Of a stretch of DNA of 59,239 nucleotides, positions 5,666 through 58,992 are shown one piece after another. The translations under genes and the position numbers were made by a program. Position 1 is the stretch's first letter; every line of letters begins with the position of its first letter. The notes below the pieces were generated by a model. The model did no database searches. It was given only the letters and a program-made list of their open reading frames with translations, and was not told the DNA's origin. This stretch comes from a virus (lineage: Duplodnaviria; Caudoviricetes): IMG/VR virus record IMGVR_UViG_3300033153_005246, positions 1 through 59,239 of that record; one strand, 5' to 3'.

Positions 5666-6059
5666 TTTTATACCTCATCAGGTAACGTATCTATTGCTTT
5701 CAATAAGAAGATAATGGCATCTACTATAGTACCCCTAAAATCTTCTTCACTAAATACCAGTGAATCCTTAACTAACATAATATAATTTGCCATTATTTCT
5801 TTGTGAGAAGGTGATTTTGTTTCTTGGCTAGTTAGCTTTAATTCTTCTAAATACCCACATTCATCACATTCTAAAAATCTACCCTCTACTCGTAATTCCT
5901 GTATATTACATTCTGGACATATTCTGACTAAATTACTAATGTCTGTAAATTCAGTTTCTACATTTAGTCTTCCTATAATAGCCATAGATGTGTGATCTCT
6001 AATGATCCCATTTTCCTGAACAACTACCATAGTAGTTTTTGTCTTTATAAATGCTCCAT

Positions 6060-6479
6060 TCATAATTTCCTCCTAAATTCCTTACTTTTCTTATCAGCCA
6101 TTTTTAACATTTGATTATTCCTTGAAAGATGTTCTGTTATAATTTCGATCTCATTTTCTCTAAAATAATTCAAAACAAATTTTAAAACAGGATGCTTCTT
6201 TAATAAATTTTTATTTATTTTTTTATCTCTATGAAGCATAGATACACTAATAATAGAATCACAATATACTTTAAAACTTGTAATATTGTATTTCTCATAT
6301 AATGCTTTTAATGCACAGTATACTCCCATTATCTCTGCTGTATTGTTATTGCTTGCTTCAAACACTTCAGAAGATTCTACTATTCTTCTATTTTTCTCAG
6401 GAGAATGATAGACATATCCTGCTTGACATTTTTTATCTGATTGAAAAGAAGAATCCACCCAAACTTTTAGAGATCCCAT
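6060..6479 (-). CDS. rnhA: Ribonuclease HI-like protein
   Basis: VWVDSS, NNTAE, YCDS and N..AD motifs give the D-E-D-D catalytic set. Confidence 0.75.
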   Translation of the reverse strand: MGSLKVWVDSSFQSDKKCQAGYVYHSPEKNRRIVESSEVFEASNNNTAEIMGVYCALKALYEKYNITSFKVYCDSIISVSMLHRDKKINKNLLKKHPVLKFVLNYFRENEIEIITEHLSRNNQMLKMADKKSKEFRRKL

Positions 6480-6706
6480 TTATAAGCTTCGTCTAACGTC
6501 TTTGTTTTTTCTGCTATCTGTGTGTCTACATCATCAAGCTCTTTATATTTTCTAGTAAGTGTATCGTCTATCTCTTTAATAGAAGAACATCCATAAGTTT
6601 CCTTAGCAGTTTTGTATTCTGTTTCCAATTTTGTTTCTACCTGAATCTTTGTTTTCTGGTTATCGTCAATCTGCTTTTTTATTTTTAAAATATCTGTTTT
6701 TGTCAT
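6467..6706 (-). CDS. Small coiled-coil hypothetical protein
   Basis: 79 aa; GAGGAG RBS. Confidence 0.6.
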   Translation of the reverse strand: MTKTDILKIKKQIDDNQKTKIQVETKLETEYKTAKETYGCSSIKEIDDTLTRKYKELDDVDTQIAEKTKTLDEAYKWDL

Positions 6707-6861
6707 TTATTCTCCTCATTTTCTTTTATTAATTGTAAACATCTAGGGCAAGTAACCTTTTCTAGTAAAGAAGTCCTTTCTGTTCTGTATGCTGTTTTTC
6801 CACATGTTGTTGTAGTATTCAAGTTCTTTCTTTTAATATAATGTACCCATCTTTTTTTCAT
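6703..6861 (-). CDS. Small putative Zn-binding protein (52 aa, not in the ORF track)
   Basis: MKKRWVHY...CGK...VTCPRC; fills the gap between genes with an ATGA overlap. Confidence 0.5.
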   Translation of the reverse strand: MKKRWVHYIKRKNLNTTTTCGKTAYRTERTSLLEKVTCPRCLQLIKENEENK

Positions 6862-6870
6862 ATATCTTCC

Positions 6871-7872
6871 TTAAAATATTTTATCAATTATAGATATTAC
6901 ATAACTTGATGTTAAATCAAAGTTAGGGTCTTTTTCTTGTTTCTCTTTAAATTCATGAATTAAGCTCATAAAATATACTGAATCTACTCCAATTAATTGA
7001 TCTTCTAATACATCTATATCCATCAAATCTAATTCACTAATCTGCATACACATTTTTAACATCTGCCCTGCATTTATTTTCCATCCTCTATTGATGAACT
7101 TTCTCAATCTAAACACAGAAGCTACAGGATATTTACTTCCAGTATATTTCAATGTTTTATTTATTGTCATCTCATATACTTCTTCTGGAATAACTACTTT
7201 TTTAGTTTCATTTTTCCAATAAGCACGTGTATGCATAAAGTCAAAAGTATCATGAACATCTTCTGGTTCTCCATAAAATCTAACCACAAGCTGGATTTTA
7301 TCAGAAAGTGTGATAGCATTAGAAGATATAAATACAGGAAAATAGTTTCGTTCTTCCTTTTCTATAATTTTATCAGCTTTCACTTCATCAATCTCTTCTA
7401 TAATTTTATCAGGAGAAGCCCCCAATTCTTCTGTTGCATTTATAGCATTCAAGTCTCCTCGCACACCATCAGAAGGAAAAATCATTTTCACTCTATCAGG
7501 AGAGGTATTAGATATCATTCTAGATTTACTATCTTCAAGATTAGTAATATGATAATAATCTAACAATTCCTGTGTAGGGTTATTTCCATCCAATACAAAT
7601 ACTTTGGTAGATTTTCCTAATTTATTCTTTTGATCTTTGTGTGTTTCATTCCATATATCAGCATAATAATTGGCTACTTTTAATACTGTTTCTTTGGTTC
7701 TGAAATAGCAATCAAAATCGTTTACATCGTCATTAAGTATCATAGAAGTAAAACAACCTCCTGTGATAATCAAATCTTTTTCAATTGCATCTCTAACTTC
7801 CTGATTATCTATAGTAGATAACCACTCATCTATTTTCTTAACAAATACTTGCTTCATTGTTTTCTTTAACAT
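6871..7872 (-). CDS. Pol-beta-superfamily nucleotidyltransferase-like phage protein
   Basis: 'ITGGCFTS...NDFDCYF' (GG...DxD) and later 'FDF', as in CCA/poly(A) polymerase head domains. Confidence 0.55.
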   Translation of the reverse strand: MLKKTMKQVFVKKIDEWLSTIDNQEVRDAIEKDLIITGGCFTSMILNDDVNDFDCYFRTKETVLKVANYYADIWNETHKDQKNKLGKSTKVFVLDGNNPTQELLDYYHITNLEDSKSRMISNTSPDRVKMIFPSDGVRGDLNAINATEELGASPDKIIEEIDEVKADKIIEKEERNYFPVFISSNAITLSDKIQLVVRFYGEPEDVHDTFDFMHTRAYWKNETKKVVIPEEVYEMTINKTLKYTGSKYPVASVFRLRKFINRGWKINAGQMLKMCMQISELDLMDIDVLEDQLIGVDSVYFMSLIHEFKEKQEKDPNFDLTSSYVISIIDKIF

Positions 7873-8816
7873 TATTCTATATCTCCTTCTAAACTTTTAT
7901 TTATAAATTTCTCTACATTCCTGTTAATCAATATATTATCCTCCTTATCATATTTGTTTTTAATAATATATTTTTTAACATTTTTCTCAAATATGTCTGT
8001 AATTTCATACTCTTCATCCATATTGATCACAAAGCTTTCCATACGCTCATCTCGATCTTTTTCTACCTGAAGATGTTCTGTTGATATAACATTGTCTTCT
8101 ATGGGAAGATATAATGGTTCAAACTCTTTTGTCTTTGTGTCGAGCTTCCATACTCTAGGCTTATAATCAATTTGATTAGCAGAAATCCTCATAAGAGATC
8201 CGGTATTGATTAAAGTACATCCTTTGTAGGTATAGTGAAAGGGTTTATGGTGGTCTGCCGTTATGATAAAGGAATAATCCCCATAAAACTCATGAACAAT
8301 ATCTTTAGCTACTAACCCCCCAATAAGTGTGTTCTCCCTCTCGTCCACAAACCCATGGTACAGAACTATATGTGTATTCCCATCATTTTTATACTCATCT
8401 GCTAAATGTGCAATTTCTTCCCCATAATTGAATCCGTGAATCATCACATTGGAATCAGGGATCAAATAAGGCTTTCCAATCACATGTATAATATTCCCTG
8501 CTGTAATAGCAGTTTGTATTATAGATTCCCCAATATAATCAAGACTCTTGTTTTTGAGATCATGGTTTCCCAATATTGCAATTAGCTTATCAATATATTC
8601 AAGGATCAGATTTTGTGTTTTTACAGCATCGGAAACACTTTTTCCTACAGCCACATTTGTAATATCTCCTGCATCAACTCTAACTGCATTATATTTTTCT
8701 GTTAAATAATTAACATATTCTAATGCTTTGACTTGTGCTTGGTAAAAATCATCCGTTCTACAAATAGGTACTCTTGCTCCATCTAAGTGCATATCCCCTG
8801 ATGCTAGTAGTGTCAT
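7872..8816 (-). CDS. sbcD: SbcD/Mre11/gp47-like metallophosphoesterase nuclease
   Basis: GDMH, AGD, LGNHD, DHHKP and NTGSLMR motifs. Confidence 0.85.
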   Translation of the reverse strand: MTLLASGDMHLDGARVPICRTDDFYQAQVKALEYVNYLTEKYNAVRVDAGDITNVAVGKSVSDAVKTQNLILEYIDKLIAILGNHDLKNKSLDYIGESIIQTAITAGNIIHVIGKPYLIPDSNVMIHGFNYGEEIAHLADEYKNDGNTHIVLYHGFVDERENTLIGGLVAKDIVHEFYGDYSFIITADHHKPFHYTYKGCTLINTGSLMRISANQIDYKPRVWKLDTKTKEFEPLYLPIEDNVISTEHLQVEKDRDERMESFVINMDEEYEITDIFEKNVKKYIIKNKYDKEDNILINRNVEKFINKSLEGDIE

Positions 8817-9460
8817 CTGGCACCCCCAAATAATCTATCATTACGATATACAATAACCTGATTCTGTACACTTAATATCCTATTATCATAACCAGCTATC
8901 ATTACGCTGATATTATTTTCTTCGATCTGCTGTGTACTTAATATTTGATGATTCTTCATACAGCAAGGACAAACAAATACATACTTCCAATCCTTGAATG
9001 CTCTCATGACATCCATAGTTTTTACATGAGAATGTACTAACGTAATCCCCAAATGTTCTTTACCATATTCTTCTACATCTAATTCAAAATTAGATTTTCC
9101 AGAATCTGTTTCTGCATTAATATAATCTTCCCAAGTATATTTATAATAACTCAGATTTTCTACTTCCCATTGTTTCATCCATGTATTCATCCTACCCATA
9201 TTCATATTAGGATCTATGGAAGCATTAGCGGATTTACTTAGAAAAGTAAAGATACCCGATGTTCTAGCCGAATTACCATCCCCAATTGAAATATTGAAAA
9301 AATCATCCATCCTCAAATCATCTTTATTAATGGCATTTTTCATATGGTGAAAAGCCCCATAACTTTCAGTCATTTCCTTTGTAGGATTATTTGTATTAGA
9401 AAACAATCCAACCAATTCTTCGGCACAATTTCTTTTTAAAATAGAATTAACATAACTCAT
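8813..9460 (-). CDS. Possible SAM-dependent methyltransferase-like protein
   Basis: 'SIGDG..ARTS', 'SIDP', 'HSH' and 'CPCC' resemble a Rossmann MTase fold; weak call. Confidence 0.35.
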   Translation of the reverse strand: MSYVNSILKRNCAEELVGLFSNTNNPTKEMTESYGAFHHMKNAINKDDLRMDDFFNISIGDGNSARTSGIFTFLSKSANASIDPNMNMGRMNTWMKQWEVENLSYYKYTWEDYINAETDSGKSNFELDVEEYGKEHLGITLVHSHVKTMDVMRAFKDWKYVFVCPCCMKNHQILSTQQIEENNISVMIAGYDNRILSVQNQVIVYRNDRLFGGAR

Positions 9461-12465: not shown

Positions 12466-12494
12466 AATGTAACACATCATGTAATTAATGTCAA
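12466..12494 (-). promoter_or_regulatory. sigma70-type promoter
   Basis: TTGACA-17-TACATT with TG extension. Confidence 0.65.
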
Positions 12495-13179: not shown

Positions 13180-14448
13180 TTATCTCATATCAATTTTTGG
13201 TCGGCGTTTTCTATTCTGAGGTTTATCTTTATTCTCTAAATAATCCCATTTAAGAGTAGCCCTTCTTGTCAATTCGTCTTCTAAATCATTATCTTCAATG
13301 TAAGTAATCAGATCATTAAAAGACATTACCCCGAATTGAGCTACAAACACCTTCATGGTATCAGAATTAGATGATAAATACTTTTTGATATTAGAAACCC
13401 TTAAATTACCACATTCTTCCTTAACAGCTTCTTCAATATTTTGATCAGCACAGAATTTTTTATAGTCCTCATTAGAAACCCCTTCAGTTCCGCTAATATC
13501 ATAAGGATCATAGGCATCATTCCACTTTAATGCATTCATTTTAGCAGGGATGTCTTTCCCATGCTCATCTAATAAATCATACACAAATAATAGATTGCTT
13601 CTTACGTTATCGAACCCTTTATCTATTATGATATCAACATACACCTTACGCTTTTCATACAAGGTTCTTGTCTTATCTAAGAAGACTTTAACACGATAAC
13701 CATAAGGACGATCTTTTGGTCCTATATCACTAACACGTGAAAGCTCAAATCTTTTACTGGCAGAGAACTTACTTGAATGCCCTCCAGATACAATATGTTT
13801 TTTACCAAATAACCCTGAATTCAGATTATCTCTGATCTGAGAAATGATCAAAGCATGGACATTGGATTCATAGCAGGGAATGGTAGCTTCTCGCCATAGC
13901 TCCCCAAGCTTTTTAGCACGATCCCCATATGTTCCTATATCTTTGGCTTCTCCATCTTTTTTATATTTCTTTCTTTGTTCATCTGTACGTCCTTTATCTG
14001 CTAAAGAATAAAGCTGATCCTGACTATCTGTAATATAGATTCCCACTTCGCCTTTAGATGGGTCTACAGTATCACAGAATTCCAAAATATCAGCTTTAAC
14101 AGATTCTATTATTGGGATATGAACATGGTTTTTTGATCCAACTAACGGATACCCATACCTATCTTCTGTATCAAATGAAAGACCTGCTTCAGCATCATTG
14201 TATCTATACTTGGTTTTTTTACCCCCATATTCAATCATTGCATTATATAAAAGTTCAACAGCAAATAAAGTTTTACCTGCTTTTGAATCAGAGAATATTT
14301 GAGATATACCACCAACATCCCATCCCCCCTGCATGGCTATATCTAAAAGATCTATTCCTGTGGGAATTTTCTTTTTGATAATTAATTTCCTACTTTTCTT
14401 TTCTTTCTTCTTTTCCAATATTTCCTCTTTTTCTTTTGTTGTTGGCAT
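13180..14448 (-). CDS. recA: RecA/UvsX-like recombinase
   Basis: IPTGIDLLD, Walker A SDSKAGKT, DAE, DS, ISQIRD and SGG motifs; start moved to MPTT behind a GGAGAGG RBS. Confidence 0.85.
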   Translation of the reverse strand: MPTTKEKEEILEKKKEKKSRKLIIKKKIPTGIDLLDIAMQGGWDVGGISQIFSDSKAGKTLFAVELLYNAMIEYGGKKTKYRYNDAEAGLSFDTEDRYGYPLVGSKNHVHIPIIESVKADILEFCDTVDPSKGEVGIYITDSQDQLYSLADKGRTDEQRKKYKKDGEAKDIGTYGDRAKKLGELWREATIPCYESNVHALIISQIRDNLNSGLFGKKHIVSGGHSSKFSASKRFELSRVSDIGPKDRPYGYRVKVFLDKTRTLYEKRKVYVDIIIDKGFDNVRSNLLFVYDLLDEHGKDIPAKMNALKWNDAYDPYDISGTEGVSNEDYKKFCADQNIEEAVKEECGNLRVSNIKKYLSSNSDTMKVFVAQFGVMSFNDLITYIEDNDLEDELTRRATLKWDYLENKDKPQNRKRRPKIDMR

Positions 14449-18369: not shown

Positions 18370-18398
18370 AGTATAACACGGTTTCCTGAATTTGTCAA
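18370..18398 (-). promoter_or_regulatory. sigma70-type promoter
   Basis: TTGACA-17-TATACT with TG extension; flanks nearly identical to the promoter at 18736. Confidence 0.8.
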
Positions 18399-18735: not shown

Positions 18736-18764
18736 AGTATAACACGGAATTCGTTATTTGTCAA
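18736..18764 (-). promoter_or_regulatory. sigma70-type promoter for the RNA genes
   Basis: TTGACA-17-TATACT with TG extension. Confidence 0.8.
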
Positions 18765-18799: not shown

Positions 18800-21046
18800 T
18801 TAATCACATTTAGAATATCCACAAATACAAGATAAACACCCACCCTGATACACTAAAGCAGTATTACCACATTCAGGACAGACCGCAGATTTCTTTACTT
18901 CTTCCCCCTCTTCAATATAACCTTTCAATACTCTAGCCAAACCACGAGAAAATGAAGCAAAGTTATCCTCTTTCACAAGTGTATCTACAATAAATTGTAA
19001 AGGAGTAACACTATTCTGGTGACGGAGCGCCATTGAGATGATTCGAGTCATGGAACCATATTCTTTTTCAGCACCTTCTGTTAAATCCTCTGTAATGGTT
19101 TTACCCTTAAGATCCAATAGTTTATAATGTCCTTTTTTTGCTTTTACAATTTTGCCAACTTTATCTTTAAAATCTTTAATTGGATGGGTTACAAATACTT
19201 CATATACTTTCCCGTCAAGAATACCTACAAGTATGAGAAGCTTTTCTCCCTTTGAAGAGATGTTATACACATCACAGGGCAACGAGTTTGGACGTTTAGG
19301 GGCAATCCTATCTGAAGACACTTCTTTGCTTTTAGCTTCATTATAATTATCCTCAGTGATGAGAACACCTGTTTTGCTTCCTTCCCTATAGACGGTTACT
19401 CCTTTTGCCTCACTTTTCCATGCTTCCATATAAATAGATTCTATATCTTCTACTGTAGCATCTTTTTTAAGGTTATACGTGACAGAAACAGCAGAATCTA
19501 TGTATTTTTGAATGACACTAATCAATCGTATTTTTGAATGATTATTAATAGTGTGTGCTGTTTTCCATATTTCTGGATCTAATTCATCAGCATTTTTCTT
19601 ATTTACTTCTAATCCCTTATTTCTAAGTTCTTGCACTACTAAATCATTAAAAATAAACCATTCTTTCCAATCTCCTGTAGTACTCCTTTCTCTCCTAACA
19701 TAATATTTTGCAAAGATAGGTTCAATACCAGATCCTCCAGACTCAACGATAATAGACACTGAACCATTGGGTGCTAGTGTTGTTTTGCATACATGTGCTT
19801 GGAAATCCAAAATTTTATCTGTAATTATTTCTTCAGATAACAACATTTGCACAAAAGGAGATGACTTATACTTTTCTTTATCATAAGAAGGAAAAGACAT
19901 CCCATCATAATTTTTAGCAATATCATGAGATGTTTTATATGCTTGTCCGGTTAAATTGCTAAATATCAATTTTGCTTTTTCTACTGCTGTTGGAGAATCG
20001 TACGGTACACCTTCTCTTATCAGATAATCAGCAAATCCTGTCACCCCTAATCCTATTCTTGGTATCTCTTTTAATTTCTTAAGTTGGTCTTCAGAAGGAC
20101 TTCTTTGTTCTATTATTTCTTCTCTTCTAAAAGCATCTAAAACAAATACCATAAAATCAGTCAACTCAATAAAACCTCTATACCTATACTCATGAAATTT
20201 AGATAGATTCACAGAGGATAATAAACATACATTATGCCCATCCAACACCTGCTCCGAGCATCCGTTGACGTTATCAATTGGATACCCTAGCCGATCTGAA
20301 TTGCTGTACTTTTTGGATGTATCCCAAAATAAAAGCCCTGGGTCCCCAGACTTGTGTGCATGTTCCGCTATCATTCGAAATAATTTTCTTGCTGAGATTG
20401 TTTTTCTAATCGTTTCATATTCATTTTCATAGAAAAATTCCCAGTCTATATCATCTTCAACCGATTGCATAAACTCATTTGAAACTTTTATAGATATGTT
20501 TGCTGTCTCTAATACTCCTTCTTCATCTTTACACTTGATGAACAATGGAATATCGGGATGTCGAATATCTAAAGAAATTAAAGAAGCACCTCTTCTACCA
20601 TCTTGTGCAATTTCTTTAAGTATGCCATCAAAAGTCCTCATAAAGGACACAGGTCCTGTTGATGTGTTTGATGAGTTATGGACAACCGCCCCTGAAGGTC
20701 GTAGAAGAGAAACATCAATCCCTTCACCTTGACCCACCGCTGCAAATTTTCCCCACCAATACCAAGCATCTGCAATAGATTCTAAATTATCTTTTGGAGT
20801 ATATAATGTTGTGCAGTTTACAGCAGACACATTCTTATTAGGATTCATAGCACTTCTGAAAAGTCCTCCGGCAAACCCAACCCATTTCTTACTACCATAT
20901 TCAATAGCTTTCCCTTTTAAATGAGGATAATATTTTGTAACTACAGCATCTATTCTTTTTAAAGGATCAATAAGTTTCTTATCTATTTCCAGCATATATT
21001 TTGCTCTGTACACCTTCTCTGCCATTTCTGAATTAAATTCCAACAT
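18800..21046 (-). CDS. nrdJ: Class II (B12-dependent) ribonucleotide reductase
   Basis: VNC, GRRGA, NGCSEQ, CLLSSVN, APNGS, GIEP and KGVTVYREGS motifs, C-terminal CPEC/CxxCGYSKC; no beta subunit nearby. Confidence 0.85.
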   Translation of the reverse strand: MLEFNSEMAEKVYRAKYMLEIDKKLIDPLKRIDAVVTKYYPHLKGKAIEYGSKKWVGFAGGLFRSAMNPNKNVSAVNCTTLYTPKDNLESIADAWYWWGKFAAVGQGEGIDVSLLRPSGAVVHNSSNTSTGPVSFMRTFDGILKEIAQDGRRGASLISLDIRHPDIPLFIKCKDEEGVLETANISIKVSNEFMQSVEDDIDWEFFYENEYETIRKTISARKLFRMIAEHAHKSGDPGLLFWDTSKKYSNSDRLGYPIDNVNGCSEQVLDGHNVCLLSSVNLSKFHEYRYRGFIELTDFMVFVLDAFRREEIIEQRSPSEDQLKKLKEIPRIGLGVTGFADYLIREGVPYDSPTAVEKAKLIFSNLTGQAYKTSHDIAKNYDGMSFPSYDKEKYKSSPFVQMLLSEEIITDKILDFQAHVCKTTLAPNGSVSIIVESGGSGIEPIFAKYYVRRERSTTGDWKEWFIFNDLVVQELRNKGLEVNKKNADELDPEIWKTAHTINNHSKIRLISVIQKYIDSAVSVTYNLKKDATVEDIESIYMEAWKSEAKGVTVYREGSKTGVLITEDNYNEAKSKEVSSDRIAPKRPNSLPCDVYNISSKGEKLLILVGILDGKVYEVFVTHPIKDFKDKVGKIVKAKKGHYKLLDLKGKTITEDLTEGAEKEYGSMTRIISMALRHQNSVTPLQFIVDTLVKEDNFASFSRGLARVLKGYIEEGEEVKKSAVCPECGNTALVYQGGCLSCICGYSKCD

Positions 21047-21052
21047 TTCCCC

Positions 21053-21367
21053 CTATTTCAAATCCTTAATCATATCTTCCACTTTCTCTTTATTCAACCC
21101 ACCGCTAAGTCTGTCAAGATACTCCCCATTATTAAATAACATAACCGTAGGTACAGATCGTAGGTCATACTCAACAGCCAATGTGTGTTCTTCTTCTGCA
21201 TCTATTTGATAGAATTTAATGTGCTTGTTTTCTTTTGCCAATTCCTCATAAGTAGGGGCAAATATCTTGCATGGGTTACATGTTTTAGTTGTGAATTTAA
21301 CCATTATTGGTTTTTTTATTTTAAGAACCTTGTCCTCAAAATCTTTTGTTACTAAATTTTTAATCAT
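21053..21367 (-). CDS. trxA: Thioredoxin
   Basis: CNPC active site and cis-Pro loop 'SVPT'. Confidence 0.9.
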
Positions 21368-21612
21368 TTATTCTCCTTTCTACTGTCTTTAGAATACCTT
21401 AGACGTCTTAGAGCTTTTACTTCAATCTGTCTGATCCGTTCTCTTGTAACATTAAAATACAACCCAACTTCTTCAAGTGTCAATGAATAACCACCTTCAA
21501 GGCCAAATCTCATTTTTAAAACTTCCTGTTCCCGGGGTGGCAGTGTTTCTAAAACATCCTGCAATTGCTCCTGAAGAATTGTAAAGTCCTTAGTTACTAT
21601 ATTTTTAATCAT
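21364..21612 (-). CDS. Stand-alone sigma70 (RpoD) region-4 domain protein
   Basis: [47 protein letters not shown] is the primary-sigma region 4 HTH; regions 1-3 are absent. Confidence 0.9.
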
Positions 21613-23211
21613 TTATTCTCCTCAAAAGTTAAAGTAATCTTTTTGATTATCTCTTCTGCGTATCTTTTACCTGCTATTCTTATTTTTATAGCATCCCATA
21701 ATGAAAGTTTAAACTTAAGCTTTACAGTCAATGATCCTATTTCTGCCATTTACCCTCCTTTTATTTTTCCTTGATAAACACATTCTTTTTAATATCAAGC
21801 CAGATAGGAGGTTGTGTTGCTCCAGAAAGAATACCTATCCAGATATTACCATGAAATAGGAATTTTAGTCTTTCAAAGAACGAGGCAGACCATAAACTGA
21901 TACAAGTCCCCTCTGAACGACAAACCCAAAGACTGTCACATTCACCATCTGTCATAGATTCTGGCTTTTTTAATTCGACTTGTGCTTCTTTAAAATATTT
22001 TGGTTTCACTTTAACAACTCCTTTATTTGCATTCGGGACAGTGGTTTTCCTGTCCATATTTCTTTTCTATTTCAATCAGAAACTCCTTAAATCTCATTTC
22101 CAATTCTGCTTCTTTAGTTTTTCGACAAGAAACACATGGTACTAAATTCTGTATATTATAGGCTTGCCTATAGAAAGATACTAATTTGAATGCATCTTTT
22201 GAATCAATTAAAATACCATCTGTAGATTGCTCATTAGTCAATCCATTGGGAGTATAGAATATAGTTCTGGTATTATTCAAAGCATTGAGTTTTTCATAAA
22301 CTAATTTTAGTTCATTGAATAGCATTTAATCTCCTTTTAATAAATATGAACTTCTTCTATAAATTTTAAATCTTCTTTTTTAATATTAGTAAATCCTATT
22401 TTATTTAAACTATTTAAAAAGTATCTACTCCAAAAATAGGATCTTTGGCAAATAAATGAAATTGTGTTTCTCCAGAATGGGCATTGCCAGATTCTCCATA
22501 TACAATATTTTTTACCTCTTTTAATAACGTTTCTAAAACATCAAATTGATCGACAGCATCTTCGAATTCTTCCCATAATTGTAATAAGCCAAACTTATTA
22601 AGTGTTATATAATCAAAATTAATACCTATACCAGCCACCGCATCATAATCTACTCCCATACTGTTCTCCTTTTTCTACCTCTGCAATAAGCTCTCTATAA
22701 TTTGCTGCAACTGTAAGTGCAACAGGAAACTTCCCATTCTCTATCTCTATCCAAAGTTTTAATATTCCTTTAACAATATCCAAAGAAAGACCTAATTTAT
22801 TGCAGACTTTCAAATAAACTTCTTTCTCAAGTCTGTCATCTAACACTTCTTTAGCATCATTGTTTTTCACAATCTGCTTAAAAATAGTCATAAGATCATC
22901 ATAGACATCTTCTTCAAAATTCAAATGAGTTTTTCTTAGCTCTTTTACCTCACGAACTGGCTCTATTAAATTGTCACATTCTAAAATAGTAGTAAAGTAT
23001 TTAGTGATTTCCTTCTTAATCCTTTTAACATCCTCTGTCTCATTATTCTCTTTGGGAAAATGAGTATCCATGAAATCGTTCTTTAAATCCCGATTATGTG
23101 CAGATAGATCTTTTTTCTCCATTGTGAAGGATTTATACTTTTTATAGTAATCCTTTATCTCATTAACCAATTCCTTACTTAATTCTTCCATTTATTTTCT
23201 CCTATTTTCTT

Positions 23212-26536: not shown

Positions 26537-26565
26537 AGTATAACATGACTTCTATTTCTTGTCAA
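26537..26565 (-). promoter_or_regulatory. sigma70-type promoter
   Basis: TTGACA-17-TATACT with TG extension. Confidence 0.75.
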
Positions 26566-26954: not shown

Positions 26955-27527
26955 TCAAACATCCTTATAATAAATCTGGGGATATACCATTGCAATTTTA
27001 GCTTCTAATCCTTCTATACCAGAATCATTGTGTAATGTGTAATCTGGGATAATCTGATCCATTTCCTGCTCAGATGAATGTTGGTCTGTTGAAACTAATC
27101 CTTCTCTTTTTATCTTAAGAATATGTCCTCCCATTTCTTTAAGAATTTTAAATTCGTTAAGAAAACGAACATCTGATATTACTACATCTGCTCCTTTCGG
27201 TAGGCTTTCATACCAGTATTGGAATCTTTTGCACCACAGATTGTTTCCAATGATTTCATTAAAAGTTTTATTGAGAGTAGGAAAGAATTCTCTCATAGTT
27301 TCTGTTCCAAATACTTGCTGTATTTCTCTTCCACTCATACCCCATCGTTCATCTACAACTTCTTTTTGATCACCATTTATTTGGCTGTCTGACATCAAGA
27401 ATGTATCTGCTACGAAGTTCTTTATAGGAGAAGCAAATTTGTACTTCACAAATCCATGCTGTCTAATTAGATAGTCTGCGACTACATCTTTTCCTGCAAA
27501 TTTTTTACCTGTTATTCCTATGATCAT
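26955..27527 (-). CDS. Deoxynucleoside monophosphate kinase
   Basis: GITGKKFAGKD, FASPIK, REIQQVFGTE, SDVRFLNE and HSSE motifs. Confidence 0.9.
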   Translation of the reverse strand: MIIGITGKKFAGKDVVADYLIRQHGFVKYKFASPIKNFVADTFLMSDSQINGDQKEVVDERWGMSGREIQQVFGTETMREFFPTLNKTFNEIIGNNLWCKRFQYWYESLPKGADVVISDVRFLNEFKILKEMGGHILKIKREGLVSTDQHSSEQEMDQIIPDYTLHNDSGIEGLEAKIAMVYPQIYYKDV

Positions 27528-28276
27528 ACTGTTTTATCCTCCTCATATCGAAACTTTTTAAAATATCTTTTCTCAGCATTTATTCGTACTTCTTTTGCTC
27601 TTTCAAAATCAGAGTAGTATCCCAAAGCAATATACTGGTTATACACTCTTATCTGTACTTGCCATTTTTTATTTCTTTTATGCCAAGAAACACCTCGTAA
27701 TCCAGAAGTGTTTGCTTTGGTATTTCCCTTATTCCATTTATTTTGAAAAGAGGAGGCTATTCTTAAATTGGTTTTTAAATTGTTTAATTTATCAGTGTCT
27801 TTATGATCTATTTCTAAATCTTCTGGTGCACCCATAATAAGTCTGTGTAAATAAACTGTTTTATTAGAATCTCTGTATCTGCTGATAACATAACCATTTT
27901 TACTTAAGTTCCAACAGAAACTTTTTACTAAATGGTAGTCTGTTTCTTCTATTTTTGTATATTCTTTTTTTAAAGTTCCTTGCTTATTATAGAAATAAAT
28001 ATATATGGTATTCCCTACTCTTTTAATTTTATTTCGCACAGTGCGGTTTAATTTAGCTTGTTCAGCCATGAAACACCCACAACTAGTTGATTTCCCAGAT
28101 AATAAACTATATCGTGAAATAGATTTCACATTCCCACAGATACATTTGCACATGTATTTCCATTTAGAAGGAGCATTTGGCTTTTTCTGTTTAGAATTGG
28201 AATCTGCCTCAATAATTTCCCATCTACCAAATTTCTCTCCTTGTAGTAAATATTTTGGATGTTTATACTGTCTCAT
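27524..28276 (-). CDS. HNH homing endonuclease with AP2 domain
   Basis: CxCxCG...SCGC N-terminus, LHRLIM..IDHKD..KLNN...NLR, C-terminal NTSG..GVSW AP2 domain. Confidence 0.85.
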   Translation of the reverse strand: MRQYKHPKYLLQGEKFGRWEIIEADSNSKQKKPNAPSKWKYMCKCICGNVKSISRYSLLSGKSTSCGCFMAEQAKLNRTVRNKIKRVGNTIYIYFYNKQGTLKKEYTKIEETDYHLVKSFCWNLSKNGYVISRYRDSNKTVYLHRLIMGAPEDLEIDHKDTDKLNNLKTNLRIASSFQNKWNKGNTKANTSGLRGVSWHKRNKKWQVQIRVYNQYIALGYYSDFERAKEVRINAEKRYFKKFRYEEDKTV

Positions 28277-29381
28277 CTTTCTTACTCCATTTAATCATAT
28301 ACTCAGGAGATTTTGCTTTAAATCCAATATTTTGATCAGTCATTGATCTCCATACAAACCCTTCTCTTTTTGTATTACCAAATACTGATTTACCATTAGC
28401 ATCGGATAACACTTCTTCTATAGTATTTGGTAATAAAATATTCCAAGCATAAACAGGAACTGTTTCAAATCCATATTCATCACTAAATCCTATCATTTCA
28501 TAATAATCTAAAGTTCTCCCAGTGGCACTATCACTTACTTTAAATACAAATAATCGTGGAGTTTTAAACTTATATATATTTTTCTGAACACCTTCTTTAC
28601 AAATTTCCCCATGAATTGCGTATTTAATTCCGGTATCCTTATAAGCTTTTCTGAGTATTTTTTCTATTTCATACTGTTTACTTATCTGATCCCAATTACT
28701 ACCATCACCATCAAATCTCATAGCATTGTGAGAATAGAGTCTATACTCAGGATTCTTTTTGTTTCCATAAAGCATAAAACAAGAACTTTGTCCTTCCATT
28801 TTTTCTGCTTTATAGTATAGTTCTTCTGGCTTATTTTCCTTAAGCCAATTAAATACTTTTTGAACATTTGTCTCATTACTTTTCTGTATGGTATCAGGAT
28901 ATGTATTTTTAGATTTTTTCTTACCAAGAATTATATTTCTGAATACTTTATATTTTAACAAGAAGTTGGTGAATTTCCCATACTTCTTTTTGCTTGTATT
29001 AACAGATATTTCTTCGGGAGCATATTTTCTAGCACCTAATTTATCTGCTATAACTGTACCCACTTTTAATTTATGTCCATTTTGCAGTAAACTAAGAGGG
29101 AGACACAATCCTTGGCTAAAGACACCTGCCATTAACATATTTCTTATTCTAAAACCATCATAAAGAGAAGAGTAACAACGTGCTCTCAGAAACTCCAATT
29201 CTGGTCTAGGTTTTAATACTACATCATATTCTACATATATAGTGTAATCTCCAATAGTGTAATCTCCTTTAGTTACGATTACTTTCCATCCATGATCTAT
29301 TTCCGCTAATTCAATTCTGTCTTTTCCCAAAATAGGCTCCAAGCCAGTAATAACTGATATGTATACAAGATCTCTACCCAT
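28263..29381 (-). CDS. RNA ligase (Rnl2/DRB0094-like)
   Basis: N-terminal 'DRIELA..W.V' domain; EKMEG, HGE, REG and FKAKS ligase motifs. Confidence 0.8.
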   Translation of the reverse strand: MGRDLVYISVITGLEPILGKDRIELAEIDHGWKVIVTKGDYTIGDYTIYVEYDVVLKPRPELEFLRARCYSSLYDGFRIRNMLMAGVFSQGLCLPLSLLQNGHKLKVGTVIADKLGARKYAPEEISVNTSKKKYGKFTNFLLKYKVFRNIILGKKKSKNTYPDTIQKSNETNVQKVFNWLKENKPEELYYKAEKMEGQSSCFMLYGNKKNPEYRLYSHNAMRFDGDGSNWDQISKQYEIEKILRKAYKDTGIKYAIHGEICKEGVQKNIYKFKTPRLFVFKVSDSATGRTLDYYEMIGFSDEYGFETVPVYAWNILLPNTIEEVLSDANGKSVFGNTKREGFVWRSMTDQNIGFKAKSPEYMIKWSKKDETV

Positions 29382-29395
29382 AATTTCTCCTCTAT

Positions 29396-30148
29396 TTAAT
29401 ATTCATTTCTACATACACTAGCAGAAAACTCTTCGTGATATCTTTTCTCAGCTAATTTTCTAGTTTCTACTGCTTTTGAAAAAGACGAGAAATATCCCAA
29501 ATGATACTGCTTTTTATTTAACACAATAAATGGCAAGCATTTATTGTTTCTACAATGCCATGTTACTCCGGTAGCACCAGAAGTATTATTTGATTGTATT
29601 TTATGATTCCTATTATTCTCTTTGCTATTACAAATCCTTAAATTTTCTTTTTTGTTATTTAATGGACTGCCATCTATATGATCTATAACTAGATTTCCAG
29701 AATAATCTAAAATAAATCTATGTATTCTTGTAATTTTTTTATTGATTGGAGCACAAACATAATCCCTATCTGTGGTGTGCCAACAATAATCTTTTACTTT
29801 AGAGTAATCTTCTTTATCTATAACTATCTTTTTTTGAGAATCGTTACTACTTACTATAAGTATTGAATCTTCTAATGTTATAATTTTATTTTTCTTTTTG
29901 TTGGCTTCTTTTGTCTTTTTTATTGCAAGACACCCACAACTCTTTACATGTCCTCTACATATGGTATTTTTAGACAAGGTAACAATATTCCCACAAACAC
30001 ATTCACATGTATATTTCCAACTTGATGGTGGGATCATTTTTCCATTTATAAACTTAGATTGTTTGTCAAGATTAATAACAGTTAAACAATTAAATACCAT
30101 TCCCGAAGATAGATATTTAGGATACTTGCTACAAGATACCTCTCTCAT
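29396..30148 (-). CDS. HNH homing endonuclease with AP2 domain
   Basis: Paralogue of 27524-28276; IHRFI..IDHIDG..LNNKKENLR and NNTSG..GVTW. Confidence 0.85.
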   Translation of the reverse strand: MREVSCSKYPKYLSSGMVFNCLTVINLDKQSKFINGKMIPPSSWKYTCECVCGNIVTLSKNTICRGHVKSCGCLAIKKTKEANKKKNKIITLEDSILIVSSNDSQKKIVIDKEDYSKVKDYCWHTTDRDYVCAPINKKITRIHRFILDYSGNLVIDHIDGSPLNNKKENLRICNSKENNRNHKIQSNNTSGATGVTWHCRNNKCLPFIVLNKKQYHLGYFSSFSKAVETRKLAEKRYHEEFSASVCRNEY

Positions 30149-33290: not shown

Positions 33291-33319
33291 AGAATAACAC
33301 ATGTAGTAAGTTTTGTCAA
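33291..33319 (-). promoter_or_regulatory. sigma70-type promoter
   Basis: TTGACA-17-TATTCT with TG extension. Confidence 0.7.
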
Positions 33320-35026: not shown

Positions 35027-35995
35027 TCATACAACATCCTTTATAATATTATTTCTTAATATATTTACCAAATAATTATTAGCCCATTTAAAATTTGGCT
35101 TCTTTGGTAATACCGTTGTTTCTAAAGCTTTTTCACATAGTTTTGCATATGTTTCATGCATTTCCAATAATTCATCTAAATACACATCCCCATTTCTAAT
35201 TCTCATTACATTTATTTTGTGTTCTCCTGTAAATGGGAATTCTAGTTTACTTGTCTCCAATAGCATTAGACCTTCTGCCATAATTCTTATGCTATGCATA
35301 CCAAATTTTAAGTCGTAACCATGAGACAAGAAGGTATCTGTTTTTACCCTCCATCCATAGTTATCTCTTTCGCTAACTAATTTTTCATAATTAACATGAA
35401 GAGGAAGTCCTATATGGAATGATTCTGCATTACCATCTCTGTTCTTATAGAAATCTAAATTTTTATTCATCCAATCAGCATCATCCTGTGTCAGCCCATA
35501 TTTTCTATCAGTCAATTGATCTTTAGTAAATCTATTCTCTACTAATTTAATACCATTTGTTAAAGAAGCATATCTTTCTTTCTTGGTGATTAGTTTCTTT
35601 TTTTGAGAATATGCATAACTTGTAAAAGAAAAATATATTTTCTGAGAAATCAGTTTTTTATAGTTATCTATCAAAGGTTGAAATTCTGGTTCACAAATAA
35701 GTACATTCTCACCTGTGGCAAATAAAGTTTCTACAATATTTGGATTATTTCCCAAAAGCAAATGCATAAATTTAGGAAGAGAATATGATACATCATCAAT
35801 ATCATCTTTTGTATTTCTTCTATCTTCCGACGAAGATTTAGTAGAATTGTTAATCATATCCACTTTATTCAATCCCAGTAAATCCTCATCTGATGGCAGG
35901 AATACAGATAGAAAATCCTCATCTGATTCTGGAGTACTCAATCCGTACAACTGAGAGCCAACTCTTATTCTATATATTATTTTTCTTTCTTTCAT
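35027..35995 (-). CDS. Nucleotidyltransferase (Pol-beta superfamily, YcgL-like)
   Basis: VGSQLYGLSTPESDED, NNPNIVE and YDLKFGMHSIR; start taken at MKERK (ATGA overlap with cca). Confidence 0.8.
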   Translation of the reverse strand: MKERKIIYRIRVGSQLYGLSTPESDEDFLSVFLPSDEDLLGLNKVDMINNSTKSSSEDRRNTKDDIDDVSYSLPKFMHLLLGNNPNIVETLFATGENVLICEPEFQPLIDNYKKLISQKIYFSFTSYAYSQKKKLITKKERYASLTNGIKLVENRFTKDQLTDRKYGLTQDDADWMNKNLDFYKNRDGNAESFHIGLPLHVNYEKLVSERDNYGWRVKTDTFLSHGYDLKFGMHSIRIMAEGLMLLETSKLEFPFTGEHKINVMRIRNGDVYLDELLEMHETYAKLCEKALETTVLPKKPNFKWANNYLVNILRNNIIKDVV

Positions 35996-37326
35996 ATCAT
36001 CTCCTTTGCCACAGTAATAGCTTGTTCTCTGGTTGATACCACCCCATCTAATTGCAGGTTCATGATACAAGTTAAAATAGTGGTAAATCTAGGACTAGGC
36101 TCCAATCCTAATTCAATCAAATCTTTTCCACCAATAATGCATTTTGGTAATACAACTTCATTTTTCAATTCTTCTTTCATTTCATTAATTCTATTAAGCC
36201 AATCAAATTTATTTATTCCATCTTCAGGATCAGCAGGAGTAGATGCCATACTATCTGCATGTGAAACTGTGACTAGTTTATCAAAGTAGGTTTCTGCCAT
36301 AAGCCTTCTTAAAGTAGATCTTTTCATTTTGGAAGCATGTTTGATTCTCATATGATCTTTTACAATAGCTACTGCCGTATCTCTATGGGAAGAAGACGCT
36401 TTAAATCTATTCATAACTTCTTCTGCCATTTCTGCACCTATACTGGCATGTCCAAGATGTTTAATAATCCCCTCTACAATAGTACTGCATTTGGCTTTCC
36501 CAATATCATGCAATAGAGTCCCCCATAATACATCTAAATCATCTGTGTGTTTTCTGGCTTCATTTAAAGCAAGCATGGTGTGTTTCCACGTAGAACCTTC
36601 TGTGTGCCACTTAGGGGATTGGTCAACAAGAATTAGCTCATTTACTTCCTCTAAAATAATAGATAATATACCACAAGTCTTTAACAATCTAAACCCTATA
36701 CTTGGATTTCTAGCTAATAAAATCTTATCCAATTCCATTTTAACTCTTTCAAAAGAAATCTTTACAATACTAGAAGATAATTTAGTAACAGCTTGTCCTG
36801 CTGAAACTTCCAAATCAAAATCCAAAGAAACAGTAAATCTAATTGCTCTCATCATTCTAAGAGCATCTTCTTTAATCCTTTTCTCAGGATCACCGACAAA
36901 TCTAATAATGCTATTTTGAATATCGTCTACCCCACCAAAGAAATCAAACAACTTATTTTCAATAGGATCAAAAAACATAGCATTCATTGTGAAATCTCTT
37001 CTACTGGCATCTTCCTTGAGAGAAGATGTATATTTCACACTATCAGGTCTTCTTCCATCAGAAGTATCTGAATCAGTTCGTAATGTTGCTGCTTCAAACT
37101 GAAGATTATACACAATAACTATAATTACACCAAATGCTTTTCCCACAGGTAATGTATGTCCAAACAATTCTTCGACCTCATCTGGAGAAGCTGATGTGGC
37201 AACATCATAGTCTTTAGGAGTCCTTCCCATAACCTGATCTCTAACACATCCTCCTGCAAATACTGCAATATGTCCCGCATCTTGTAATTTTTTCACAATA
37301 TTTGTGGCTATTTCTTTTTCGTTCAT
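35992..37326 (-). CDS. cca: CCA-adding tRNA nucleotidyltransferase with HD domain
   Basis: AGGCVRD, KDYDVAT, RRDFTMNA, EDALRMMRAIRF, SFER and LLHDIGK motifs. Confidence 0.9.
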   Translation of the reverse strand: MNEKEIATNIVKKLQDAGHIAVFAGGCVRDQVMGRTPKDYDVATSASPDEVEELFGHTLPVGKAFGVIIVIVYNLQFEAATLRTDSDTSDGRRPDSVKYTSSLKEDASRRDFTMNAMFFDPIENKLFDFFGGVDDIQNSIIRFVGDPEKRIKEDALRMMRAIRFTVSLDFDLEVSAGQAVTKLSSSIVKISFERVKMELDKILLARNPSIGFRLLKTCGILSIILEEVNELILVDQSPKWHTEGSTWKHTMLALNEARKHTDDLDVLWGTLLHDIGKAKCSTIVEGIIKHLGHASIGAEMAEEVMNRFKASSSHRDTAVAIVKDHMRIKHASKMKRSTLRRLMAETYFDKLVTVSHADSMASTPADPEDGINKFDWLNRINEMKEELKNEVVLPKCIIGGKDLIELGLEPSPRFTTILTCIMNLQLDGVVSTREQAITVAKEMI

Positions 37327-37335
37327 TATTATCCC

Positions 37336-37881
37336 CTATTCTATAATATCATACCGATATATCAACCATTCAAGAGTATCTAATATTCTGTAGTATAACA
37401 CAGGAAGGTCTTTATTTTCTTCATTATCCCATATTAAATCACTCATTATATAATGCGTTTCCATTACATATTTCTTTATAAATTCTACAGGAACACCATC
37501 AGCCTCAAGAAATAGCACATTATGTAAACGATCTGCTAATTTAATTAAAAGGGCATCTTCACTCATGTTATTCATTCTATCAGTGAGGTACTTTCTCTTA
37601 CTAACTTTTTTTGGTTTGTTAGAAGTTAACTCTTCGACAAGTCCTCCAATCCTATCTCCAAATAATAAGTAAATATCTCTATTACTCACATTATCACAAT
37701 CTTCAGGAACATCATGGAGTAATGCAGCAGCGATTAATTCTGGATCTTTTGTAATATCCTCAATCATCCTAGCTACATACTTAGGATGTGAAAAATAAGG
37801 AAGTCCAATGAACTTCCTTTCCTGTCCTCTGTGGGATGCTTCTGCAAAGTTATAAGCTTTAATTACAATTCTTTTTATCAT
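37336..37881 (-). CDS. HD-domain small alarmone hydrolase (SpoT/Mesh1-like)
   Basis: H.GQ.RK...PYFSHP, AALLHDVPED and IKLADRLHN motifs. Confidence 0.85.
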   Translation of the reverse strand: MIKRIVIKAYNFAEASHRGQERKFIGLPYFSHPKYVARMIEDITKDPELIAAALLHDVPEDCDNVSNRDIYLLFGDRIGGLVEELTSNKPKKVSKRKYLTDRMNNMSEDALLIKLADRLHNVLFLEADGVPVEFIKKYVMETHYIMSDLIWDNEENKDLPVLYYRILDTLEWLIYRYDIIE

Positions 37882-37909: not shown

Positions 37910-37938
37910 ACTATAGTATGTTTTTTAATTTTTGTCAA
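37910..37938 (-). promoter_or_regulatory. sigma70-type promoter
   Basis: TTGACA-17-TATAGT upstream of the HD-cca-NTase genes. Confidence 0.7.
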
Positions 37939-41257: not shown

Positions 41258-42244
41258 TTAATCTATTTTTATTCCAGAAATTTCATAAAAAATCTCAGCA
41301 TCGAAATTCGGTAAGTTTTTAACAGTTTCTTTGTCTTTAACGCTGGCATTGTCCCATGCTCTTTCAAATGCTGTTTTATAATCTAGTGTTCTTAAAAATC
41401 CTCCACAAGTTTCAATCTCATTTTTGTACTCTTCTTTCTCTTCTTCTGTTGCAGTATCATGACTGACCCATTGTGTAAGATCAAAGTATAAGAATGAGGG
41501 AAAAGAAATACTTCCCATTTCAAGTTCTGTATCTTTATTAAACAGCCTTGCGATAGGGTTTTCAGTGTTAAAGAATCCAGAGTTCCAATTTCCAGAGTTC
41601 CAATTTCCAGAGTTCCAATTTCCAGAGTTCCAATTTCCAGAGTTTCTGTTTCCAGAGTTTCTGTATCCAGAGTTGCTGTATCCAGAGTTGCTGTTTCCAG
41701 AGTTGCTGTCTCCAGAGTTGCTGTATCCAGAGTTCCTGTATCCAGAGTTGCTGTCTCCAGAGTTGCTGTTTCCAGAGTTGCTGTTTCCAGAGTTGCTGTT
41801 TCCAGAGTTGCTGTTTCCAGAGTTGCTGTTTCCAGAGTTGCTGTATCCAGAGTTGCTGTATCCAGAGTTGCTGTTTCCAGAGTTGCTGTCTCCAGAGTTG
41901 CTGTTTCCAGAGTTTCTGTCTCCAGAGTTTCTGTTTCCAGAGTTTCCAGAGCCTGTATTTATTAGACCCAACAATTCTGCCCACTCTACTTCTCTTACAA
42001 TTTTTATTTTATTTGTAGCCTGTTTATCCTTATCTGTACCAACGATATCTCCAATTAATTCTACTTCTGCAACTTTATTATCAGTATCAAAACTATAATA
42101 ATTGAAACAATCCACTGCCTTTTTACACGCATGAAACCCAACTTCACACAAAACAGGTTTTTCTTTCATTTCATAAGTTTCTCCTACTTCATATTGAAAT
42201 CCTCTACATGCCCAATCATTGTTAAAAACTTTATATGCTTTCAT
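41258..42244 (-). CDS. Pentapeptide-repeat (xxNSG) phage protein
   Basis: N-terminal 'CRGFQYEVG...GFHAC' domain, central repeat, C-terminal 'LPNFDAEIFYEISGI'. Confidence 0.85.
   Translation of the reverse strand: MKAYKVFNNDWACRGFQYEVGETYEMKEKPVLCEVGFHACKKAVDCFNYYSFDTDNKVAEVELIGDIVGTDKDKQATNKIKIVREVEWAELLGLINTGSGNSGNRNSGDRNSGNSNSGDSNSGNSNSGYSNSGYSNSGNSNSGNSNSGNSNSGNSNSGNSNSGDSNSGYRNSGYSNSGDSNSGNSNSGYSNSGYRNSGNRNSGNWNSGNWNSGNWNSGNWNSGFFNTENPIARLFNKDTELEMGSISFPSFLYFDLTQWVSHDTATEEEKEEYKNEIETCGGFLRTLDYKTAFERAWDNASVKDKETVKNLPNFDAEIFYEISGIKID
41576..41944. repeat. 15-bp coding tandem repeat
   Basis: 25 invariant TCCAGAGTT cores at exact 15-bp spacing with 6 variable bases between them. Confidence 0.95.
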
Positions 42245-42273: not shown

Positions 42274-42302
42274 ATGTTAACATTAAATGATACGTTTGTC
42301 AA
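42274..42302 (-). promoter_or_regulatory. sigma70-type promoter
   Basis: TTGACA-17-TAACAT with TG extension. Confidence 0.65.
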
Positions 42303-46559: not shown

Positions 46560-46588
46560 AATATAGCATAATTTTATTTATTTGTCAA
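46560..46588 (-). promoter_or_regulatory. sigma70-type promoter
   Basis: TTGACA-17-TATATT with TG extension. Confidence 0.7.
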
Positions 46589-47152: not shown

Positions 47153-47181
47153 ATTGTAACACAGTTTGTTTTATTTGTCAA
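47153..47181 (-). promoter_or_regulatory. sigma70-type promoter
   Basis: TTGACA-17-TACAAT with TG extension. Confidence 0.7.
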
Positions 47182-50742: not shown

Positions 50743-50771
50743 ATACTAATATAATTTTTAGAGATTGTCAA
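50743..50771 (-). promoter_or_regulatory. sigma70-type promoter
   Basis: TTGACA-17-TAGTAT upstream of the MTase-M23-cmoA-dcm gene run. Confidence 0.6.
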
Positions 50772-58977: not shown

Positions 58978-58992
58978 TGTTTTCTCCTTTCT

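Follow-up and report, generated by a model that had tools for sequence, protein, structure and literature searches.

The viral DNA analysed here, a linear IMG/VR virus record of 59,239 bp (IMGVR_UViG_3300033153_005246; the whole stretch is called the window; 35% complete by CheckV, GC content 32%), carries on its minus strand a chimeric gene for a protein of 82 amino acids (aa) at 21364..21612. Residues 1–10 of this open reading frame (ORF) derive from the adjacent thioredoxin gene (trx), residues 11–79 from region 4.1–4.2 of rpoD, the gene for the primary sigma factor, and the last residues and the stop codon from a copy of the end of ORF46, the gene upstream. Our leading but still tentative reading is that a spirochaete rpoD fragment was captured by a staggered recombination, that selection has kept the core of the domain, and that the product would act in trans as a mimic of sigma region 4 (σ4), damping transcription initiation that depends on the −35 element.

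A single Pfam family matches the 82-aa protein above its cut-off. Sigma70_r4 (PF04545) covers residues 20–72 with an E-value of 1.1e-19 and 70.1 bits, against a gathering threshold of 24.1, and spans profile positions 1–49 of 50; the only other match at E ≤ 0.01 is a sub-threshold one to Sigma70_r4_2. With no region 2 or 3 detected by Pfam, this agrees with a sequence-only reading of the same DNA, which had described the ORF as sigma region 4 and nothing more. The protein thereby lacks the region 2 that marks sigma factors of the sigma-70 family, and its homology to RpoD begins only at residue 10–11. The NCBIfam RpoD model (PRK05658) gave 103.4 bits, compared with a cut-off of 555, and was covered at positions 557–624 of 631 only, while the PHROGs match was to phrog_351, 'RNA polymerase sigma factor', at positions 663–727 of 928. 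None of the AsiA, gp33, P7, gp39 or gp67 families was among the Pfam or PHROG matches, and Pfam returned neither a GerE/LuxR-type helix-turn-helix at E ≤ 0.01 nor a thioredoxin match, the trx-derived part being the first 10 residues only. Because regions 1–3 and the C-terminal helix H5 are absent and the RpoD model scores below its cut-off, the 82-aa product does not qualify as a sigma factor and belongs instead to the Sigma70_r4 domain family. Second-best in NCBIfam (5.1e-27) was the model of MzaA, an RpoD-like sigma factor from the anti-phage system MZA, a match that probably reflects shared RpoD ancestry, as any RpoD tail would give.

The predicted structure is consistent with this assignment. 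An AlphaFold2 model has four helices (residues 3–21, 26–36, 46–53 and 57–77; mean predicted local distance difference test score 75.6) and no fifth helix, and the protein aligns to residues 541–602 of Escherichia coli sigma70. The helix-turn-helix of region 4.2 (21382..21477, minus strand) is formed by the model helices at residues 46–53 and 57–77, and its TRERIRQ recognition helix is unchanged. Compared with 72 bacterial loci, residues 27–72, which include the helix-turn-helix of region 4.1–4.2 with its −35-reading residues, are invariant or near-invariant except for G40 and V65. What is missing is the far C-terminal tail (H5), since the bacterial frames go on L-K-D-Y-(L/I)-x-x whereas the phage ORF ends in E-N-K after residue 79.

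The two ends of the chimera lie in a duplicated 40-nt segment. Copy 1 (21583..21622, minus strand) comprises the last three codons and the TGA of ORF46, the Shine-Dalgarno sequence AGGAG located 5 nt before the ATG of the 82-aa ORF, and that ATG with codons 2–10; copy 2 (21338..21377, minus strand) comprises the last codons and the TGA of the 82-aa ORF, AGGAG, and the ATG and codons 2–10 of trx. The copies agree at 36 of 40 nt (21622–21583 against 21377–21338), and three of the four differences (ATA/TTA (I/L), ACT/ACA, AAG/AAA and GAC/GAT) are synonymous, so that the match of ribosome-binding site and first ten codons to trx, as well as its largely synonymous divergence, had been read correctly from the sequence. 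Directly outside the repeats the identity drops to background, and a repeat search placed the pair in a two-copy family with a spacing of 245 nt. At no more than three mismatches, its 22-nt core is found in the window only at these 2 places, against 0.03 expected, and at least two sites were found in 0 of 100 shuffles. The repeat starts inside the upstream gene, at GAG AAT AAA TGA (E-N-K-stop), and both ORF46 and the 82-aa ORF end in E-N-K followed by a stop. As the repeat spans the upstream stop, the ribosome-binding site and trx codons 1–10, the duplication gives the new ORF its stop as well as its start, with the reading frame kept at both junctions.

Between the repeats lies a 205-bp insert (21378..21582, minus strand; codons 11–79), and nowhere else in the window is DNA similarity to Spirochaetia widespread. 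One 20-kb slice of the window matched 280 of 401 Spirochaetia genomes; all 150 matches listed fall at 21361–21589, the best having 83% identity over 198 nt. The other slices matched 5 of 401, 0 of 301 and 0 of 301 genomes, the five being due to a pentapeptide gene and a CCA-adding enzyme. These data mark the insert out as a discrete island of spirochaete-like DNA, bounded exactly by the repeats. Its 5′ junction lies at a TTT common to trx codon 10 and an rpoD Phe codon, and its 3′ junction lies between AAG and GAG. The sequence-only reading had the 3′ end of a host rpoD captured behind a copied trx start. Its trx-derived start and the origin from a spirochaete rpoD region 4 hold, but the last 7–8 rpoD codons (the LKDY.. 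tail) are not in the insert, and the stop, too, came from the duplication.

At the protein level, the RpoD closest to the domain, which had been left to a database search, is that of Spirochaetales, with 91% identity in a search of one genome per species and 90% in Spirochaetia genomes. In the former search, a Spirochaetales metagenome-assembled genome (91%) and Oceanispirochaeta (89%) were followed by Thermotogota at no more than 69%; the best 54 rows bear spirochaete names except for two (L080 and L088), which may be mis-binned. Among proteins of nearly the same length, the best non-self matches are 87–89% identical over residues ~11–80, and those that bear a name are sigma fragments of Treponema or Spirochaetaceae. 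The matched segment was the C-terminus of an open frame of 575–693 aa in all 20 loci examined, and 141 of the 150 matches listed lie in frames longer than 500 aa, the other nine in frames of 118–446 aa. At E ≤ 1e-20, a match was present in 369 of 401 Spirochaetia genomes, once in 368 of them and twice in one, where the second is a 352-aa sigma.

The similarity narrows to one Spirochaetales RpoD clade, with which the phage protein shares 60 of 62 residues at positions 11–72 and whose variable 4.1 signature is reproduced exactly by residues 11–25. The 16 clade loci have one amino-acid sequence over the positions matching codons 11–79 and a median mutual DNA identity of 76%, and the insert is 70–81% identical to them in DNA, which suggests that the donor belongs to this clade but is unsampled, or that the capture is old. 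The GC content at third codon positions (GC3) of the insert is 0.275, compared with 0.238 for the phage genes and 0.42 for the closest rpoD; spirochaete rpoD genes of low GC3 (0.06–0.29) exist too. From the identity of the donor, we infer that the host of the phage is a spirochaete.

A complete relative places the gain of the gene in a variable part of the genome. In the window, the minus-strand gene order is ORF100, ORF98, ORF46 (21609..21749; 46 aa, no family match, its ..EENK and TGA being the source of the copied stop), the 82-aa ORF, thioredoxin (21053..21367, minus strand; 104 aa, intact, the source of the copied 5′ end) and the large chain of ribonucleotide reductase (RNR; 18800..21046, minus strand; 748 aa), which lies downstream in the same gene string. 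A conserved 382-aa neighbour, whose closest matches among named phages are in large phages of Clostridioides and Bacillus (40–47% identity), led as a query to a viral contig of 168,384 bp (L145, genome G402; 100% complete by CheckV) with a homologue of 64% identity. There, the clamp loader and homologues of a 182-aa protein, an 81-aa protein and ORF100 are followed by trx (63%) and RNR (60%), and the block between ORF100 and trx, occupied here by ORF98, ORF46 and the σ4 gene, holds one unrelated ORF of 64 aa (L145 17324–17518). At E ≤ 1, neither the 82-aa ORF nor Sigma70_r2 has a match in G402, and a beta-type RNA polymerase match was likewise not found in it. The σ4 gene is also absent from all 80 loci of related viral contigs (1.40 Mb) at E ≤ 1e-3, so that the comparison across related phages, which had been proposed as a check, finds it neither in the syntenic complete relative nor in these loci. 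The gene was gained in this lineage specifically, within a block of small ORFs that varies. The trx of the relative begins MVNNLTTEDF, homologous to the copied decapeptide, and the first 10 trx codons lie inside the Pfam thioredoxin match (PF00085, 1.9e-24, residues 3–101); the decapeptide is therefore ancestral to thioredoxin, and the σ4 ORF holds the copy.

By DNA, INPHARED gave three records, each with a 75-nt match within the insert; by protein, it gave 34 records of no more than 67% identity, of which those with an annotation are called rpoD or sigma factor and none was taken as a relative. The σ4 query reached at most 59% identity in IMG/VR. No relatives were found in IMG/VR with the trx query or with the RNR query, nor in JGI metagenomes with the trx query, and the RNR query there gave one locus (L119, 47% identity). 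This locus was dropped as an informative relative, as its RNR has an insertion, a dUTPase-like ORF lies upstream and trx is lacking; its RNR (6001–8673) has 890 aa compared with 748 aa in the window, the extra internal segment looks like an intein, and the 156-aa ORF preceding it is dUTPase-like by eye. LigA homologues with 55% and 47% identity on other contigs, a 127.7-kb one among them, indicate that closer relatives exist. Two ORFs with Sigma70_r4 alone were found in other viral contigs, one of 90 aa (L012 3947–4219; L013 has the same ORF; Pfam 5.6e-14) and one of 74 aa (L022 3968–4192; 3.4e-14); a CHC2 zinc-finger protein is the neighbour in one and a preceding DUF2201 metallopeptidase/VWA gene in the other. 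A cluster look-up added ten short σ4 proteins, of which P0002, P0009, P0070 and P0110 are leads only, stand-alone genes and contig-end fragments being inseparable in this set.

Whether the captured domain has been under selection was judged from the repeat itself. Pairwise ratios of non-synonymous to synonymous change (dN/dS) against bacterial rpoD cannot isolate the phage branch, and their synonymous sites are saturated (synonymous differences per site, pS, 0.73–1.03); the trx of the relative, considered as an outgroup for polarising the four repeat differences, was dropped for saturation as well. Over codons 2–10, divergence between the repeat copies amounts to 3 changes at 5.0 synonymous sites plus one non-synonymous change, and 2 of the 62 core residues depart from the clade sequence. 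In a conditional binomial test of non-synonymous drift of the core at the synonymous rate of the repeats, p was 0.0054 for codons 26–72 and 0.0026 for codons 11–72. The changes crowd in the 7-residue tail, which has 4 of 7 residues changed compared with 2 of 62 in the core (Fisher p = 5.6e-4; uniform placement p = 0.0013). Among the states specific to the phage, V65, Y73, S74 and D76 each occur in 0 of 72 bacterial loci and G40 in 3 of 72. Both core changes are natural variants, G40 by virtue of those three loci and V65 by its presence in Thermotoga sigmaA (PDB 1TTY). Purifying selection on the four-helix core, with drift of the tail next to the junction, is moderately supported by these comparisons. 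An absence of such selection had been named in the sequence-only reading as what would tell against a functional product, and on that point the internal repeat clock argues for selection on the core (p about 0.003–0.005), although from few sites.

The anatomy of the locus suggests how the gene may have been born. A 205-bp piece of spirochaete rpoD, covering region 4.1–4.2 without the tail, would have been inserted by illegitimate recombination at the junction of ORF46 and trx, through two crossovers whose positions on the phage side were staggered by 40 bp, yielding repeat, 205-bp insert and repeat; such a staggered double crossover is the origin that we infer for the structure. One junction copy would then have become the ribosome-binding site, start and first 10 residues of the new ORF, and the other its stop, leaving trx and its stop/start coupling intact. 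An ATGA overlap of stop and start is present at each end of the 82-aa ORF, between ORF46 and the 82-aa ORF and between the latter and trx. Viable products may have been only those in which the trx start was intact and still coupled to translation from upstream, which would explain why a duplicated junction is what is seen. An insert in frame at both ends has a prior probability of ~1 in 9 and is compatible with selection for the peptide as well as with selection for nothing more than the coupling.

As to function, the product would be a free σ4 domain that keeps every −35-reading residue of the host primary sigma factor and, if made during infection, would mimic region 4 of the host sigma in trans. 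Its binding to TTGACA −35 boxes, or its competition for the partners of σ4, would damp −35-dependent initiation. Isolated region-4 chains of 62–87 residues are found in the PDB by sequence match (1TTY, 1KU3/1KU7, 4G6D and 1TLH), of which 1KU7 is a complex of region 4 with −35 DNA and 1TLH the AsiA complex, according to an excerpt of PMC2988021. The window has ten intergenic TTGACA-N17-TAnnnT promoters of the sigma70 type on the minus strand (12466–12494, 18370–18398, 18736–18764, 26537–26565, 33291–33319, 37910–37938, 42274–42302, 46560–46588, 47153–47181 and 50743–50771); most begin TTGACAA, and 8 have the TG of an extended −10 element. The one at 26537–26565 is a consensus promoter (TTGACA, 17 nt, TG-n-TATACT) and is the nearest upstream of the gene string with the σ4 gene. 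The same promoter type occurs in the complete relative, with 3 sites compared with 0.46 expected. Holoenzyme without region 4 is inactive at a −10/−35 promoter and merely reduced at an extended −10 promoter, as reported in part of PMC7948647. The phage promoters would be less sensitive, being buffered by their extended −10 (TGn). A takeover by domain mimicry, in which the stolen free σ4, as a competitor of the holoenzyme, shuts −35-dependent host promoters while the extended −10 phage promoters fire, is a further possibility, and we hold it more loosely than the general reading given at the outset.

Several points weigh against our leading reading. Isolated σ4 binds DNA weakly, and a −35 blocker could hurt the phage itself, whose own promoters carry perfect −35 boxes. 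The missing H5 is among the parts that contact the flap: the beta flap touches residues in or near H1, H2 and H5, and H5 is normally embedded in the flap hook, in the excerpted account of PMC2988021. The loss of H5 makes a strong flap competitor, one of the roles proposed in the sequence-only reading beside a −35 repressor and a decoy, somewhat less likely. A complex prediction of the 82-aa ORF with a spirochaete beta-flap segment (L132:1906–2280) scored 0.04 against a mark of 0.34, which by the rule of the tool is evidence neither way. The clock rests on 3 synonymous differences and assumes that the repeat copies were identical at birth; it would lose force had a diverged phage been the source of the cassette, or had the joining itself introduced the differences. 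The nearest clade rpoD is just 81% identical in DNA, and the time since capture is not directly measurable. No orthologue was found, and direct dN/dS is therefore not possible; the 90% cluster of the 82-aa protein has one member, and the identical protein is on 2 contigs. Finally, the in-frame junctions could have been selected merely for translation coupling of trx and RNR.

The last point leads to the serious rival, that of a neutral or nearly neutral recombination scar, in which an rpoD fragment sits in a fast-turning block of small ORFs as a harmless arrangement, being in frame and leaving trx and RNR translated through the duplicated junction, and its peptide has no role. We consider this plausible, though less likely than our leading reading. 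In its favour, the gene is a singleton, in a one-member cluster, absent from the complete relative and the 80 related loci; the block from ORF100 to trx varies between the phage and its relative; the tail next to the junction has decayed; and coupling alone can explain why the frame was retained. It accounts less well for a core that stayed identical to the donor clade at 60 of 62 residues while 3 of 5 synonymous sites changed between the repeats (p about 0.003–0.005), for changes that avoid the core (p = 5.6e-4), for phage-like codon usage and for the recurrence of σ4-only ORFs in other viral contigs. An assembly artefact, with host rpoD reads misjoined into a phage contig, is scarcely credible even though the record is a metagenome assembly, given that phage sequence resumes after just 205 bp, the repeats match imperfectly (36 of 40) and not exactly, both ends of the insert keep the reading frame, its GC3 resembles that of the phage, no rpoD searched exceeds 83% identity to it, and the identical protein is recorded from 2 contigs.

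Two further alternatives grant the protein a role. In one, it is a protein decoy that soaks up whatever docks on region 4, be it an anti-sigma factor, activators of the class II type, the AsiA-like inhibitor of a rival phage or a component of a sigma-based defence, and does not act on DNA or the polymerase. The H1–H4 surface is essentially that of the host (60 of 62), and region 4 is known to be docked by phage and host factors, with region-4 chains in the AsiA complex 1TLH as well as in 2P7V and 4G6D, which we take to hold Rsd and gp67, respectively. The MZA anti-phage system includes an RpoD-like sigma, MzaA, although the match to it is one that any RpoD tail would give. On the other hand, AsiA, Rsd and other known families of σ4 binders were not found among the 89 ORFs of the window (Pfam, E ≤ 0.001–0.01), and H5, the part used by T4 MotA (PMC2988021, in excerpt), is gone; we regard a pure decoy as improbable. 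In the other, for which precedents are T4 gp55 with gp33 and Bacillus subtilis SigO-RsoA, the protein would supply region 4 in trans to a phage sigma factor without its own. As the window covers about 35% of the genome, such a partner could lie outside it. However, no second sigma domain was found by Pfam among its 83 + 6 ORFs, the complete relative has no Sigma70_r2 match and no σ4 and manages without the gene, and the domain reads the TTGACA of the host rather than a new element, which makes a two-piece sigma very unlikely. The preferred reading remains the staggered capture of a σ4 mimic acting in trans.

Nearly all genes of the window lie on the minus strand. A Pfam scan of 83 ORFs showed a large-phage module for replication and nucleotide metabolism, with a family A polymerase, a gp32-like single-stranded DNA-binding protein, a RecA-like protein, a clamp loader, ThyX, a deoxynucleoside monophosphate kinase, an RNA ligase, a CCA-adding enzyme, an NAD ligase, a DnaB-like helicase, methylases and three HNH_3 genes. 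The polymerase (37935–40688; 917 aa) has a domain of the uracil-DNA-glycosylase superfamily N-terminal to its 3′–5′ exonuclease. At 28263–29381 and 35027–37881 lies an RNA-repair-like set, consisting of an RNA ligase with an OB domain, an RlaP-family nucleotidyltransferase overlapping a CCA-adding enzyme with an HD domain, and a further HD_4 protein. The HNH_3 paralogues, each of ~250 aa, are at 27524–28276, 29396–30148 and 56525–57301; the copies of the complete relative are elsewhere (L145, about 8183–8992 and 13303–14058), as expected of free-standing homing endonucleases. A 38-nt sequence occurs three times at 58992–59161 with a spacing of 66 nt; the first copy shares two bases with the start of a SNF2-like helicase gene, the remaining two are upstream of that gene, and the copies could be iterons or operator sites. 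Upstream of ORF46, for which the ESM Atlas gave no usable match, the stretch at 21761–22325 is a block of small ORFs without any family match. The protein encoded at 41258–42244, a DUF7666 and pentapeptide-repeat protein whose gene has a 15-nt tandem periodicity, has a DNA match in one Spirochaetia genome (G209; 75% over 281 nt) and another in G293; in the two regions only this gene is common with the phage, and no related prophage was found there.

Host-gene capture by phages is familiar from morons and auxiliary genes, which the present locus resembles in that its host-like DNA forms a discrete island, lies in a block of small ORFs that varies, and is absent from the nearest relative. It departs from them in that a single internal-to-C-terminal domain was taken, not a whole gene, and that the fragment is expressible through a duplicated junction of phage genes. 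The locus also illustrates unusually clearly how a fragment can become a gene, by gaining ribosome-binding site, start and stop while essential downstream genes stay expressed. In the literature outside subscription journals and supplements, our search turned up no account of a host-derived sigma region 4 that a phage encodes as a stand-alone protein. To our knowledge, the known phage tools directed at the node of σ4, beta flap and −35 element are dedicated binders without resemblance to sigma. If our reading is true, a phage-expressed copy of the host σ4 would be a different and simpler route to the same end, a takeover by domain mimicry distinct from the σ4 binders AsiA, gp67, P7 and gp39 and from gp33. 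It is easily testable with a protein of 82 residues, as the fold is known to be autonomous, the target TTGACA is defined and phage promoters are at hand. The σ4-only ORFs in two other kinds of viral contig indicate that the phenomenon may be general but overlooked, such genes being labelled 'sigma factor' or 'HTH protein' in annotation, and the MzaA match suggests sigma-based defence as a possible target of a σ4 decoy.

Compared with RpoD/SigA region 4 of the Spirochaetales clade, the phage protein has 60 of the 62 core residues, the four-helix fold and TRERIRQ, but it stands alone without regions 1–3, begins with ten trx-derived residues, lacks H5 and has an altered H4–H5 linker. T4 gp33 replaces region 4 on the beta flap, and T4 AsiA binds and remodels region 4 of sigma70; both are small phage proteins that redirect the host RNA polymerase at the σ4/beta-flap/−35 node, where the action of the 82-aa protein is predicted. 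Interference of the AsiA type spares promoters that do not need −35 contact (PMC2988021, in excerpt). No sequence relationship to AsiA or gp33 was found, and those proteins evolved as binders of σ4 or of the flap, whereas the 82-aa protein is a stolen copy of σ4 itself; it would resemble them in outcome while standing outside their families. PhyR of Alphaproteobacteria, a two-domain response regulator with a degenerate sigma-like domain, is a sigma-factor mimic that serves as a decoy. The likeness is a sigma-like domain apart from a sigma factor that titrates a partner, as is proposed here; but PhyR is cellular and degenerate, while the phage-borne domain is nearly identical to a working host sigma. 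Closest in form are the σ4-only ORFs of L012/L013 and L022, which also consist of region 4 alone, in 74–90 aa, on contigs classed as viral. They are, however, at most ~53% identical to the 82-aa ORF. On those contigs the analysis covered the ORFs around the matches, and what appears special to the present gene is its near-identity to an identifiable donor clade together with the preserved 40-bp duplication of the junction.

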